Shown piece by piece: positions 15,955 to 41,991 of a stretch of DNA of 64,000 nucleotides (positions are counted from its first letter, which is position 1; each line of letters begins with the position of its first letter). A program made the translations under genes and the position numbers. Location of the stretch: NCBI GenBank assembly GCA_965228735.1, contig OZ245838.1, positions 3,296,001 through 3,360,000 on the forward strand. The letters run 5' to 3'. Under the pieces are notes generated by a model that saw nothing but the letters and a program-made list of their open reading frames with translations, was not told the origin of the DNA and did not search any database. This DNA is from Planctomycetota bacterium. Its GTDB lineage: Bacteria > Planctomycetota > UBA1135 > UBA2386.

Positions 15955-16431
15955 CTACTTCTTCTCGCGCTCGGACCCACTCTTCTTCGCGGGCTTCTTC
16001 GCGCGCTCGGGCTTGCTCGAGCCCTTCTTGGCGGGACGCTCCTTCGGCTGCCGGGGCTGCTTCTTCTGGCCCTTCTTCTGGGCCTTCTCGCGCAGCTGCT
16101 CGACGAGCTTGTTCGCGGCGGCCTCGTCGATCGAGGCCTTCACGACCTTGAGCTTCTTGGCCTTCGGAGCGGGCAGCGTGCCTTTCTCCTTGCGGGCCTT
16201 GCGCGCCTTGACCTCGGCCTTGTGCGCTTCGACGGCGTCCTTGTGCTCCTGCTTGAGCTCGGCCTTCAGCCCGGCGACTTCATCGGCCTTCACGACGCGG
16301 TACTCGTCGTCGATCTGAACGACGGCGTGCGGGATCGGCTTGCTCTCGGGCTCCTGCGCCATGGCGGGTTGCGCCAGGGTCGCGACGGCCAGAAGGAGGG
16401 AGACAGGAACGAGGGAGACTTTGATGTTCAT
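15955..16431 (-). CDS. Secreted Lys-rich hypothetical protein
   Basis: Signal peptide MNIKVSLVPVSLLLAVATLAQPAMA, GC3-rich codons, and an upstream sigma54 motif. Confidence 0.7.
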   Translation of the reverse strand: MNIKVSLVPVSLLLAVATLAQPAMAQEPESKPIPHAVVQIDDEYRVVKADEVAGLKAELKQEHKDAVEAHKAEVKARKARKEKGTLPAPKAKKLKVVKASIDEAAANKLVEQLREKAQKKGQKKQPRQPKERPAKKGSSKPERAKKPAKKSGSEREKK

Positions 16432-16474
16432 TGGAATGGGCGCCCGGCGATCTCGAGGGCGGTCGCGCCGAGAG

Positions 16475-16490
16475 AGCAACAGCCGTGCCA
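16475..16490 (-). promoter_or_regulatory. sigma54 -24/-12 promoter
   Basis: TGGCACGGCTGTTGCT matches TGGCAC-N5-TTGCW. Confidence 0.8.
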
Positions 16491-16654
16491 CGGCGAATTC
16501 GGCCGCGGCGGGCCGCCGACCGGGCCTACCGCCACCCAACCGGACGACGGACCACTCACGGCACACCCGATCGGGTGTCCCGCCTCCGATTCCGAATCGC
16601 CGGCGGACACCGCCGCTGACCCGCCAGGCGCCGCGCGCTACCGTGCGGTCGCCC

Positions 16655-18097
16655 ATGCTCGCGCGCATCCTGCTCCTGTCCGCCCGCAGCGACTTCCGCG
16701 CCCGCATCCGGGCGCTCGCCGAGGGACCGGACGCCGTCGTCGGCGAGCTGACGGACACCTCCTGGGCGACCGAGTTGCCGCGGCGCGATTGCGACCTCGT
16801 GATCGCCGACGGCGAGTTCGTCACGGCCGACATCAAAGCAGCGGTCGACGCCGCTCGCGCGGCGCCGGGCAGCCCGGAGCTCGTCGTCATCGCAAAGGAC
16901 GAAACCGCGGTCGAACGGGCCAGTCTGCTGGCTGCCGGCAGCCTCGCGGTGCTGCCCGAGAACGTCGCCGACGACGTCCTCGGCGAGGCGCTCCGCACGC
17001 TGATCGACAGGCGCATCGCGGCATCCCTCCTCGAACGCGGCGTCAGCGACACCGAGCCGGAGGGCTCGTTCGGCGACTACGTCACGAGCGGCAACGGTGA
17101 AGCCGCGAACCGGTTCTTGCGGCTGGCGCGCAAGCTCAGCCAGTCGGACAGCACCGCGCTGATCCTCGGCGAGACCGGCGTCGGCAAGGAACGCCTCGCC
17201 CGCGCGATCCACGCCGAGGGCCCGCGGGCGGACGGGCCGTTCATCGTCGTCAACTGCGGCGCGATCCCGGAGTCGCTGCTCGAGAGCGAGCTGTTCGGCC
17301 ACGAGAAGGGCGCGTTCACGGGCGCCGTGCGCGCCCACCGCGGTCACTTCGAACTGGCCCATCGCGGCACGATCTTCCTCGACGAGATCGGCGAGATGCC
17401 GCTGCACCTGCAGGTCAAGCTGCTGCGCGCGATCCAGGACAAGGCGATCCAACGCGTCGGCAGCGAGATCCGGCTGCCGGTCGACGTCCGGATCATGGCG
17501 GCAACGAACCGCGATCTGCTCGTCGAGATGGAGGAGCAACGCTTCCGACCGGACCTCTACTACCGCCTCAGCGTCGTCGCCATCGACGTGCCGCCGCTGC
17601 GCGACCGGCCCGATGACATCGAGCCGCTCGTTCGCACCTACTTCGAGCAGTTCCGGTTGCAGATGCCAACGGCCGCCACCGGCGTCGCACCCGCGGCGAT
17701 GCGCGCGCTCAGGGCGTATCGCTGGCCCGGGAACATTCGCGAGCTCGTGAACGTCGTCGAACGCGCCGTTCTGTTGTGCGACGGCACCGAGATCGCGCTC
17801 GAAGACCTGCCGGCCGCACTGGCAGAGACGGTGGAGCCGCCGGCGCCCGCGTCGCCGCCGACCAGCGAGGGTCGGCCGGACGACGGCGACGCTCTCGACG
17901 CCGCGACCCTGGCGCAGCCGCTCGCAGCAGCCCGCCGCAGATTCACGGCGAAGTTCGAGCGCGCCTACCTCGACGGCATGCTGCGCGCCACCGGCGGCCG
18001 CATCAGCGAGACCGCGGCGCGGGCAGGGATCGATCCGCGCTCCCTCTACGCCAAGATGAAGCAACACGGCCTCCGGAAAGAGGACTATCGCACCTGA
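16655..18097 (+). CDS. sigma54-dependent enhancer-binding protein (degenerate receiver, AAA+, Fis HTH)
   Basis: [40 protein letters not shown]-terminal HTH. Confidence 0.92.
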
Positions 18098-18119
18098 CGC
18101 GCCGCGAGTTGCCGCAGCG

Positions 18120-18135
18120 TGGCACCGAGTTTGCT
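18120..18135 (+). promoter_or_regulatory. sigma54 -24/-12 promoter
   Basis: TGGCACCGAGTTTGCT upstream of the USP gene. Confidence 0.8.
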
Positions 18136-40342: not shown

Positions 40343-40443
40343 TCGGCGGACCGGTGGTCCCGGTTCCGAAGCTTCGGAAGCGCTCGTTCTGACGTCGTCG
40401 CGCGCGAGCGCCGAATGACCGATGCCGTGGCGATGTCGGTGCA

Positions 40444-40459
40444 TGGCACGCCCCTTGCG
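40444..40459 (+). promoter_or_regulatory. sigma54 -24/-12 promoter
   Basis: TGGCACGCCCCTTGCG. Confidence 0.75.
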
Positions 40460-40472
40460 ACTGGAGGGGGCG

Positions 40473-41465
40473 ATGAGTCATTCCAGCCCCAATTGGACCC
40501 TAGACACCTACGGCTGCTCGCGCGCCGGAACGCGCTCCGGGCCGAACGGCACGCAGCCACTGAACGGCGATCACTTCCTCGTGACCGAGCTGAGGCGCGC
40601 GGCCGAAGTGCGGCGGGCAAGCCCGGACCGCGTGTCCGAAGGACGGCACGACGGTACGAGTCAGGCGCACGCGCTCGTCGTCGCCGACGGCGTGAGCGGT
40701 CACGCCGGCGCCGCGGAGGCGAGCGCGCTCGTCGTCGACGAGATCATGCACCAGATGCTCAACGCGGTGCCGTGGCAGCGCGACCTCGACCTCGACGCCG
40801 AGACCGCACTGCGTCGGGAGCTGCGCAACGCCGCCGAGCAGTGCAGTCGTCGCCTCGCCGCCGAGGCGCGCGAGCATCCCAGGCTCGACGACATGGGCTC
40901 GACGCTCACGATGGCGTTCGTGCGGCCGCCGTACGCGTTCTTCGTGCATGCCGGCGACAGCCGCGCGTATCTCGTGCGCGACGGCGAGATCCGGCAGCTG
41001 ACGCGCGATCACACGCTGGCCAACCGCCTCGCGGAGCGCGGCATCCTGTCGATCGAGGAAGCCCGCCGCTCGCCGTTCGCCAACTCGTTGTGGAACGTCA
41101 TCAGCAGCCACGGGACGGTCGAACCCGAGACATCGTCCATTCAGCTCCAGAAGGGCGATGCCCTGCTCCTGTGTTCGGACGGGCTCACCCACGAACTCGA
41201 GGACGCCGACCTGCTCCGCGCGATCACGGCGCACGGCTCCGCGCAGGCCGCATGCGAAGCACTCGCCGATGCCGCGCGCGACCGCGGTGAGTCCGACGAC
41301 GTCACAGCGACGATCGCGAGAGTCGTCGACGACGCCCGGGCGAACGAAACGTCGGCGACGCCCCCGAAGCGCCGACGTGCGGAACGGCGATCGCCACCGA
41401 CCCCGACGCCGAATTTCGTCGCGGCCGCGAACCGACCCCGAGAGGCCCGCGCCGCAGGCCAGTAG
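40473..41465 (+). CDS. PP2C-type Ser/Thr phosphatase
   Basis: VVADGVSGH, MGSTLT, HAGDSRAY, QLTRDH, LLCSDGL, DDVT. Confidence 0.88.
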   Translation: MSHSSPNWTLDTYGCSRAGTRSGPNGTQPLNGDHFLVTELRRAAEVRRASPDRVSEGRHDGTSQAHALVVADGVSGHAGAAEASALVVDEIMHQMLNAVPWQRDLDLDAETALRRELRNAAEQCSRRLAAEAREHPRLDDMGSTLTMAFVRPPYAFFVHAGDSRAYLVRDGEIRQLTRDHTLANRLAERGILSIEEARRSPFANSLWNVISSHGTVEPETSSIQLQKGDALLLCSDGLTHELEDADLLRAITAHGSAQAACEALADAARDRGESDDVTATIARVVDDARANETSATPPKRRRAERRSPPTPTPNFVAAANRPREARAAGQ

Positions 41466-41490
41466 CCAGCAGCTCTCCACGCAGGAATCC

Positions 41491-41991
41491 TTGCCCCTAC
41501 CCCACCTCGACACCCGCGCTGCCCCTGACGTTCTCGAGGCCGCCGTCCAGCTCGCGGTCAGGCTCGTCCGCCGCGAGACACCGGCCCATGCGCCGGGCAC
41601 ATTGCTGACGCTCGGCGACGCCAACGCCGTCGTGCGCTGCTCCCGCCATATGGAGGGGCTCGCGCGCGCCGGCGACGAACGGCCTCCGGAGTTGGCATCC
41701 GCCCACCTGCTCGACCCGATCGCGCAGAGCACGATCGAACGCCTGGCCCCGCCGCCGCGCGCCATCGTCGTGCGCGCAGCGGGTCAGATCGAGTCGATCG
41801 TGCGCGAGGCCGACGACCCGGACCAGACCCCCTGGCTGCCGCCGACCACCGTCTCCGCGGTCATGGTCACGCGCGCCACCGACACGATCGCGATCGCCGT
41901 GCCCGCGGACGAAGACAGCATCCGCCTGTTCCACGACGGCCGACTCGTGGACCAACTCACCGCCGACGCCGGTAGCATCGCGGATGCGTGA
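41491..41991 (+). CDS. Degenerate DisA_N/DAC-fold protein lacking catalytic motifs
   Basis: VLEAAVQLAV.L.R....GTLLTLGD...V...SR...DP..QSTI..LA...AIVV..G.I....T..T..IAIAV......IRLF..G follows the DacZ-like pattern. DGA and RHR are absent. TTG start with AGGA upstream. Confidence 0.55.
   Translation: MPLPHLDTRAAPDVLEAAVQLAVRLVRRETPAHAPGTLLTLGDANAVVRCSRHMEGLARAGDERPPELASAHLLDPIAQSTIERLAPPPRAIVVRAAGQIESIVREADDPDQTPWLPPTTVSAVMVTRATDTIAIAVPADEDSIRLFHDGRLVDQLTADAGSIADA

Follow-up and report, generated by a model that had tools for sequence, protein, structure and literature searches.

What runs the general stress response of planctomycetes is a question for which our literature search found no account. 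It is raised here by a 64,000-nt stretch of a Planctomycetota genome (the window), in which a sequence-only reading had seen a sigma-54 stress regulon of about 26 kb (the block) with nine -24/-12 motifs and two paralogous activators. Stress genes of the kinds listed below are typical RpoS, SigB or EcfG targets.

All nine GGCAY-N5-TTGY motifs were recovered at the positions originally given, at most one base off. Each is intergenic and correctly oriented, 26–70 nt from the gene it points at, and the expected targets (two USPs, DUF2383, a general stress protein, PP2C, the deiminase-like protein and the carbamoyl operon) each have one ahead of them. The motif cluster is real, although it spans 24 kb rather than 26. 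That no comparable match exists elsewhere in the window proved true of intergenic DNA, where a matrix scan gave no additional site of at least 10 bits, but one extra match lies antisense within a gene at 7181(+). When the matrix was trained solely on the 47 intergenic oriented sites outside the block, the block motifs scored 11.3–20.2 bits. They thus display GG-N10-GC at fixed spacing, intergenic and oriented, as in a sigma-54 enhancer-dependent regulon. About 9 kb of the interval is without a sigma-54 promoter, the genes at 20.0–25.2 kb and 34.5–37.8 kb being motif-free; a -10-like hexamer precedes the ATG of the GNAT-nitrilase gene by 12 nt.

The consensus occurs 120 times in the 7.19-Mb genome. 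Fifty-six matches are intergenic, by the gene calls made in this analysis, with a same-strand gene within 400 nt, and 50 lie inside genes. Single matches can therefore be noise, and this favours the view that the nine are chance matches in 70% GC DNA. The density and spacing of the sites argue against it. Nine of the 56 oriented sites fall in the block, versus three in the next-best 26-kb window, and the intergenic rate outside the block predicts only 0.16 (Poisson P 2e-13). Spacers of 2–4 and 6–8 nt gave 5–19 oriented sites, as opposed to 56 with the 5-nt spacer. The motifs are also conserved in relatives and keep a fixed spacing to the ATG. The probability of a chance origin is practically nil, and we rejected it.

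Table. Features of the block (positions in the window).
Feature	Position	Strand	Evidence or remark
Sigma-54 motif of secreted Lys-rich protein gene	16476..16489	-	20.2 bits
158-aa Lys-rich protein, signal-like N-terminus, no Pfam match	15955..16431	-	sigma-54 motif also ahead of it in G013
Enhancer-like dyad just upstream of activator 1	16570..16590	.	19.7 bits; best intergenic match of the genome
Activator 1: degenerate receiver domain, AAA+ with GAFTGA, Fis-type HTH	16655..18097	+	domain matches
Sigma-54 motif of USP1, without nearby dyad	18121..18134	+	motif match
Universal stress protein 1 (USP1)	18191..18682	+	PF00582
Deiminase-like (pentein) protein, signal-like N-terminus	18692..19888	-	weak PF04371; WARD, EGG, HLD, GGTVRC motifs; ATG 27 nt past GG
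Sigma-54 motif of deiminase-like gene	19902..19915	-	motif and dyad conserved in G002
Enhancer-like dyad	19975..19995	.	19.2 bits
DinB, hypothetical protein, ECF sigma, zf-HC2 anti-sigma, cyanophycinase-like gene	20069..25154	.	no sigma-54 motif within interval
Two enhancer-like dyads in tandem	25313..25356	.	13.5 and 17.0 bits
Sigma-54 motif of carbamoyl operon	25451..25464	+	motif and dyads conserved in L015
P-II-like protein, membrane protein, DUR3-like solute symporter, 40-aa membrane peptide	25517..27952	+	
Carbamoyltransferase	27994..29034	+	carbamoyl-phosphate residues kept, aspartate side-chain residues missing
AsnB-type glutamine amidotransferase	29062..31098	+	TIGR01536 over cut-off
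Universal stress protein 2 (USP2)	31095..31568	-	ATG 26 nt past GG
Sigma-54 motif of USP2, only a dyad half-site nearby	31581..31594	-	
DUF2383 ferritin-like protein	31698..32390	-	PF09537 below cut-off; ATG 27 nt past GG
Sigma-54 motif of DUF2383 gene	32404..32417	-	
Enhancer-like dyad common to two divergent promoters (DUF2383, carbamoylase)	32490..32510	.	10.8 bits
Sigma-54 motif of carbamoylase gene	32552..32565	+	conserved in G002
M20 hydantoinase/carbamoylase-family amidase and 56-aa membrane peptide	32594..34128	+	TIGR01879 over cut-off
PP2C and Ser/Thr kinase (-; kinase at 35331..36128), GNAT-nitrilase fusion (+)	34516..37764	.	no sigma-54 motif
113-aa helical protein and YflT-like general stress protein	37786..38710	-	weak PF11181; ATG of 113-aa protein 27 nt past GG
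Sigma-54 motif divergent from activator 2	38724..38737	-	conserved in G002
Enhancer-like dyad overlapping activator 2 start	38846..38866	.	13.1 bits; 25.9 bits at same place in G002
Activator 2: same family as activator 1	38855..40342	+	Gly at phosphoacceptor position, GAFTGA intact
Two enhancer-like dyads	40350..40393	.	10.5 and 14.3 bits
Sigma-54 motif of PP2C gene	40445..40458	+	
PP2C phosphatase	40473..41465	+	ATG 28 nt past GG

The presence of rpoN, on which the original reading depended, was confirmed. The genome carries two intact copies, both encoding proteins with intact DNA-binding motifs (HTH and RpoN box). In this 93% complete genome neither RpoS nor SigB was found over cut-off (best TIGR02394 267.7 versus 378.7; best TIGR02941 92.7 versus 315), and on the EcfG/PhyR side matches to PhyR_sigma2 (PF22029) were only marginal, the best one lying within an ECF gene. 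The genome does contain further group 2/3 sigma-70 factors, which score under the cut-offs for RpoS and SigB and could drive part of the stress response.

The distance between motif and start codon is constrained. A start codon lies 26–28 nt past the GG at 23 of the 120 genome motifs, versus 3.8 expected, and five block promoters have this arrangement. In host-family genomes the same spacing gave 217 matches in 72 of 91 genomes, versus 30 in 22 of 91 at a shifted spacing. Start codons thus cluster at the predicted transcription start, ATG spacing being used here as a proxy for mapped starts. This places the start site where predicted and implies leaderless mRNAs, from which we infer that many sigma-54 transcripts would start at the ATG. 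Our literature search found no description of sigma-54 promoters of this type.

A WTCGGA-N9-TCCGAW dyad is located 52–119 nt upstream of seven of the nine block promoters, two of which use one common dyad; neither USP promoter has a full one. Using a matrix built from 16 dyads of other genomes and a threshold of 10 bits, dyads were detected at 7/9 block promoters (a figure that is not blind, since the core was first spotted in a set including the block), 4/47 outside promoters and 2% of upstream windows taken at random. The four outside promoters precede genes for BON and DUF1328 proteins, a neighbour of DUF2383 and a single short ORF, and a looser genome scan adds Dps. Across 110 activator-family loci, of which two come from G000 or G013 and some are near-duplicates, ATCGG-N11-CCGAT was counted 12 times and its N10 form 18 times, versus 0–4 times for nine other spacings, and 22 of 42 good dyads lie at most 400 nt upstream of a sigma-54 motif. 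The signal, which at the block promoters falls within the 50–150 nt typical of upstream activator sites, is weaker in held-out relatives: at 17 held-out loci, 5/29 sigma-54 sites reached 10 bits versus 11/211 control starts (P 0.03), and none of the 13 sites of G017 has a dyad. No match to the IHF consensus was found anywhere in the window. We take the block dyad to be unlike NtrC and NifA sites. These data support a predicted connection of the seven block promoters to the activator family through the common dyad, one that would add the Dps, BON and DUF1328 genes elsewhere.

The two activators are indeed related, each being the closest relative of the other in the genome. A quick tree groups 78 family sequences in one clade (SH-aLRT 91) and places activators 1 and 2 in different subclades, so that a recent local duplication is unsupported. 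The receiver fold is present (Z 15.3, rmsd 2.5 over 131 residues versus NarL), and the AAA+ domain, GAFTGA and HTH are intact in both proteins. The phosphorylation Lys is found in 0/78 family sequences, the first acidic residue of the receiver pocket in 0/73 and the phosphoacceptor Asp in 17/77. At the acidic pocket, phosphoacceptor and Lys positions, activator 1 has S/D/E, retaining Asp52, and activator 2 has L/G/T. Neither protein reaches an NCBIfam equivalog cut-off. With the N-terminal domain as query, a profile search returned 234 clusters with E values no worse than 1e-10 (of ten that were checked, one carries a name from Eisenbacteria) and a word-index search only four proteins. The family is patchy: it occurs in 30 of 90 host-family genomes, and G001, a 90%-complete genome of the same genus, yielded no member. 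The genome studied here encodes about 22 further sigma-54 activators. No histidine kinase adjoins the activators in the block; the PAS kinase at 43146–44393 also occurs in G001.

Promoter and dyad are conserved ahead of orthologues in G002/L015 and G013. In G017, 13 intergenic sigma-54 sites surround one activator-family member and precede ferritin-like, BON, USP, YflT, DUF4142, transketolase and transaldolase genes. Among relatives, CsbD, Dps, BON, USP, YtxH and sucrose-phosphate synthase genes stand behind sigma-54 motifs and adjoin the same activator family. In G200, a single-contig genome that is 99% complete, a family member is found close to a sucrose-phosphate synthase gene with a sigma-54 motif. 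Gene order differs from that of the block in G002 and G013, and synteny with G001 resumes only at 41988. With near-equal GC content (69.8% in the block versus 69.4%), a coding score only slightly lower (median 0.45 versus 0.55) and no tRNA found at the block edges, no recent foreign island is shown.

This rearranged gene order, the different subclades of the two activators, and a dyad that is weak in held-out loci, absent in G017 and missing at two block promoters would fit real promoters in separately acquired modules, each activator running its flanking genes only and the others answering to other activators, with no unified regulon. However, the same dyad stands at promoters 9–14 kb from either activator and at stress genes megabases away, and shared control could also exist in a block of mosaic origin; we regard separate control as unlikely. 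A nitrogen-scavenging regulon of the NtrC kind, in which the P-II-like protein, ureide transporter, carbamoylase, deiminase-like protein, cyanophycinase and nitrilase would harvest nitrogen, draws on the many block genes acting on C-N bonds, on a symporter to which the urea symporter DUR3 is closest among solved structures, and on the common use of sigma-54 for nitrogen genes. Yet the sole glutamine synthetase gene has neither sigma-54 motif nor dyad, a family search of the 93%-complete genome found no ammonium transporter, the cyanophycinase and nitrilase genes lack sigma-54 motifs, the carbamoyltransferase and amidotransferase consume nitrogen, and the dyad marks Dps, BON and DUF1328. We rejected this explanation as very unlikely.

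Judged from sequence, binding of the two pseudo-receiver activators to the dyad probably activates, through sigma-54, a programme against general and osmotic stress. The -24/-12 motifs would be occupied by RpoN holoenzyme of one or both kinds and opened for transcription by activator dimers on the dyad, many transcripts beginning at the ATG. Autoregulation is suggested by the dyads that lie at the start of each activator gene. Phosphorylation of aspartate by a histidine kinase is an unlikely input; our guess is that the signal is a ligand, a partner protein, or Ser/Thr phosphorylation controlled by the kinase and PP2Cs encoded nearby. Of the initial idea of a stress response wired through sigma-54, motif density, rpoN, the start-codon spacing, the dyad and stress targets in relatives support the predicted wiring, but the block is a mosaic and not one regulon.

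The carbamoyl operon is predicted to encode a salt-protectant pathway. In 80/80 carbamoyltransferases the carbamoyl-phosphate site is kept (STRT, Lys84, Arg105, His134 and Gln137, in E. coli numbering), whereas Arg229 and Gln231, which hold the aspartate side chain, are replaced by Ser/Ala and Ala/Ser. The enzyme thus has one of the two PyrB features and lacks the other; it falls below the TIGR00670 cut-off, and the true pyrB is elsewhere in the genome. AsnB adjoins it in 72/80 loci. The pair is conserved in the type strain Ectothiorhodospira marismortui DSM 4180 (L038), with a carbamoylase and near sucrose synthase. In Gammaproteobacteria the operon mostly lacks a preceding sigma-54 motif. 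In NAGGN the amine is capped and the carboxyl amidated by an AsnB-type enzyme. The predicted pathway does likewise, with a carbamoyl instead of an acetyl cap, and the block AsnB scores below the NAGGN amidotransferase cut-off (283.6 versus 570.1). The operon likely makes N-carbamoyl-glutamine amide, a compound described from E. marismortui (PMC1224877); the accessible text of the literature on this solute names no genes for it.

The block resembles the NtrC, ZraR, DctD and LuxO regulons in its -24/-12 motifs, upstream dyads, receiver fold, AAA+ domain with GAFTGA and Fis-type HTH. It differs from the NtrC type in receivers without Lys and mostly without Asp, in the lack of an adjoining kinase and in many seemingly leaderless promoters. 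FleQ/FlrA activators likewise keep a receiver fold that is not phosphorylated in the normal way (the third Atlas match, at 0.89, was a FleQ cluster, a lead only), but their targets are flagellar and those predicted here are stress genes. With RpoS, SigB and EcfG responses it shares, in this genome and relatives, the typical target set (Dps/ferritin-like, BON, CsbD, DUF1328, USP, YflT, YtxH, trehalose and sucrose synthesis), with sigma-54 motifs and an enhancer instead of the defining sigma factor. Studholme and Dixon reportedly predicted the sigma-54 regulon of Planctomycetia in 2004. An in-silico study reports that sigma-54 motifs are enriched ahead of the UspA, MscS and chaperone genes of Planctomycetia (PMC12316311), so sigma-54 control of USPs is already a prediction in print; as far as its main text was available to us, that paper names no activator family or enhancer and describes neither an island nor leaderless spacing nor a general stress response, the words 'general stress' being absent from the main text.

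The pseudo-receiver family might even act as master switch for a fourth type of general stress response beside those of RpoS, SigB and EcfG, a tentative and rather doubtful proposal: one using sigma-54, the WTCGGA-N9-TCCGAW enhancer and leaderless mRNAs but no histidine kinase, distributed across many planctomycete families and outside them, and here also controlling the long-missing N-carbamoyl-glutamine amide genes. The analysis offers a named activator family, a candidate binding site and exact predicted start sites. Sigma-54 promoters starting at the ATG would link enhancer-dependent transcription with leaderless translation, and the operon supplies two concrete candidate enzymes for making a compatible solute known since its isolation in 1991.

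The window comes from one contig of 7.19 Mb (93% complete), in which 5,455 genes were called with a purpose-built hexamer model. All nine sigma-54 motifs that the sequence-only reading had placed in the block (15955–41991) were found at their positions, and they are the only intergenic and correctly oriented ones in the window. Its statement that no comparable match lies elsewhere must be amended for a tenth match at 7181(+), antisense within a gene. Genome-wide, the pattern GGCAY-N5-TTGY occurs 120 times, 70 times in intergenic DNA; of these 70 matches, 56 are oriented, pointing at a gene within 400 nt. 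Spacers other than N5 gave 5–19 oriented sites. The block holds nine of the 56, the maximum of any other 26-kb window being three, and 0.16 motifs would be expected in its 3,067 intergenic bases, so that the predicted excess over other intergenic DNA is borne out. All nine were also recovered by a matrix trained on the 47 sites outside the block. Neither pattern nor matrix detected a motif at DinB, the ECF/anti-sigma pair, cyanophycinase, the kinase-PP2C pair or GNAT-nitrilase. The nine-promoter cluster stands; the proposed 26-kb regulon shrinks to about 17 of the 26 kb, with further members outside the block. Two promoters are followed directly, in their leaders, by short imperfect tandem repeats (four units of 12 nt and two of 14 nt). 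The rpoN gene presupposed by this reading is present in two copies, both of which keep the HTH and RpoN box and pass the family cut-off.

An ATG is located 26–28 nt after the first G of the motif in 23 of the 120 matches, versus 3.8 expected, and in five of the nine block promoters; the peak is absent for motifs with other spacers in this genome. In the 91 genomes of the host's family, the 26-nt pattern occurs 217 times (72 genomes), compared with 30 times (22 genomes) for a 23-nt control; reversing the pattern gave 23 occurrences. Across the phylum, 88 of 151 genomes contain the 26-nt pattern, the excess over the control being smaller. The GG of sigma-54 promoters lies at −26/−25, the alternative −25/−24 moving the start site by one. 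With GG at −26/−25, the ATG would coincide with the predicted transcription start site. This spacing, a proxy for mapped starts, supports the motifs as promoters. Genome-wide, TANNNT peaks 12–17 nt before start codons; leaderless initiation is thus a widespread general habit in this genome, where only 20% of 1,892 first genes carry Shine-Dalgarno-like words.

The host genome encodes about 24 sigma-54 activators, among which the two of the block are mutual best matches (46%). A profile of their C-terminal 70 residues has matches in 61 of 401 phylum genomes, the host included, and in 30 of 90 other family genomes. We recovered 81 distinct full ORFs and set aside four with ordinary receivers. In a quick tree, the remaining 77 and activator 1 form one clade (SH-aLRT 91), separate from the 15 other host activators placed, with activators 1 and 2 in different subclades. 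The N-terminal domain has a predicted receiver fold (pLDDT 93; against NarL, Z 15.3, rmsd 2.5 over 131 residues). Within the family, the conserved Lys is present in 0/78, the phosphoacceptor Asp in 17/77 and the first acidic residue in 0/73 (the residue register agrees with KdpE). Since these residues are mostly or wholly missing, activation by aspartate phosphorylation seems unlikely.

A TCGG-N11-CCGA dyad was first recognised in upstream regions from the block and from three relatives. Spacing was surveyed in 110 loci around other activator-family members (775 kb; two from the host or the relative G013, several near-duplicates): ATCGG-N11-CCGAT occurred 12 times, the N10 form 18 times and other spacings 0–4 times, and 22 of 42 good dyads lay at most 400 nt upstream of a sigma-54 motif. 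A matrix of 16 dyads placed upstream of sigma-54 motifs, none from the host, was applied at a 10-bit threshold. Dyads of at least 10 bits were found at 7/9 block promoters (six distinct sites), versus 4/47 promoters outside the block and 2% of upstream windows picked at random, and the two best intergenic matches of the genome are both inside the block. The four outside promoters precede a BON protein, DUF1328, a gene beside DUF2383 and a short ORF. With the promoter threshold relaxed, Dps and four weak cases were added out of 15 sites. Counting against the dyad as a general enhancer, in 17 held-out activator-family loci only 5/29 sites reached at least 10 bits versus 11/211 control starts; the half-site was found at 10/29 held-out, 6/9 block and 6/47 outside sites. 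None of 13 sigma-54 sites of the relative G017 reached this score. Pooling all scanned loci gave 53/111 sites of at least 10 bits, a set that includes the matrix training sites. One long intergenic gap of the window holds the dyad in inverted orientation (TCCGA...TCGGA), and no strong sigma-54 motif lies close to it. Some metagenome loci place an ECF sigma gene downstream of a sigma-54 motif that has a strong dyad, a hint of a cascade from sigma-54 to ECF factors. The host dnaK and groEL carry sigma-54 motifs without dyad, as do two Hsp20-like genes recognised by eye; a separate sigma-54 heat-shock regulon is likely.

In the relative G002, the deiminase-like gene still has its promoter and dyad, as does the gene divergent from activator 2; the carbamoylase promoter is also kept, and a trehalose-6-phosphate synthase/phosphatase lies behind activator 2. 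Locus L015, taken together with G002 as one genome, has promoter and dyads preserved in front of the carbamoyl operon. In G013, activator 1 is kept opposite the Lys-rich protein, kinase and PP2C. G017 has 13 intergenic sigma-54 sites within 28 kb around one family member, among genes for ferritin-like, CsbD, DUF4142, YflT, BON, SodC, GH15, USP, transketolase and transaldolase proteins. Held-out loci carry 10 sigma-54 sites per 100 kb versus 1.3 in the host outside the block. A Pfam scan of 58 proteins (50 of 70 predicted targets and 8 neighbours) left 17 without match, and several of the proteins matched do not belong to stress responses. A genome of the same genus (G001) is without the block, synteny picking up again at 41988. 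In one genus (g12), a leaderless-spaced sigma-54 motif next to the activator directly precedes the gene of a conserved, unannotated 716-aa protein.

Of the best 80 of 395 carbamoyltransferase-related loci, 72 include AsnB, 64 the symporter (nearest solved relative, DUR3) and 44 an M20 amidase. The carbamoyltransferases most closely related among the matches listed (three, 74–77%) are titled Planctomycetota, so that the host is probably a planctomycete. Every carbamoyl-phosphate residue of the transferase is kept, as is Arg167 (E. coli numbering), and Arg229 and Gln231 are replaced in all of these best 80; the true pyrB is located elsewhere. Several Ectothiorhodospira also carry the carbamoyltransferase-AsnB pair; one is DSM 4180, listed as type strain of E. 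marismortui, where it lies near a sucrose synthase (read from translation). The solute N-carbamoyl-glutamine amide is described from E. marismortui (PMC1224877), and more likely than not it is what the pair makes. In DSM 4180, a MarR-like regulator, an M20 amidase and an isochorismatase-like hydrolase precede the pair, suggesting synthesis and breakdown in one, differently controlled operon. One locus of G200 brings together, within 10 kb, a carbamoyltransferase-like gene, a family activator and a sucrose-phosphate synthase gene that has a sigma-54 motif. No ammonium transporter was found genome-wide in the 93% complete contig, and the only glutamine synthetase is type III-sized.

Coordinates of features in the window, the host genome (G000) and loci from other genomes (L)
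Feature	Location	Remark
rpoN paralogue	G000:C1:257000-260063	adjoins SpoIIE/RsbU-like phosphatase gene (read from translation)
rpoN paralogue	G000:C1:6643571-6645004	
dnaK, groEL, two Hsp20-like genes	G000:C1:887529, 1793849, 4076945, 5895430	with sigma-54 motifs
Tandem repeats, 12-nt units	window 18140-18190	
Tandem repeats, 14-nt units	window 25460-25490	
Inverted dyad	window 34380-34410	intergenic gap 34130-34515
Cytochrome c, heme-copper oxidase-like membrane protein	window 52174-54305	adjoin TorD-like cluster; read from translations
TorD-like chaperone, molybdopterin oxidoreductase, 4Fe-4S protein	window 54354-58548	read from translations
ECF sigma genes	L125:2932-3489, L150:5814-6389	metagenome loci
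716-aa protein	L230:11795-13945, L231:5716-7866, L233:7203-9353, L243:4178-6328	genus g12
Genes preceding carbamoyltransferase-AsnB pair	L038:7257-13077	DSM 4180
Carbamoyltransferase-like gene, sucrose-phosphate synthase, activator	L222:16-10434	G200

Sigma-54 control of UspA, MscS and chaperones has already been predicted in Planctomycetia (PMC12316311), and one Desulfovibrio sigma-54 activator is labelled general stress (PMC4641369). Descriptions of the activator family, the dyad, leaderless sigma-54 promoters or the solute genes were not found in titles and abstract openings, a coverage mostly limited to papers outside subscription. The regulation of the block is a variant of enhancer-dependent regulation, new as such, without a new mechanism. 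The block is a real sigma-54 promoter cluster, which most likely forms the centre of a stress and osmotic regulon under pseudo-receiver activators.
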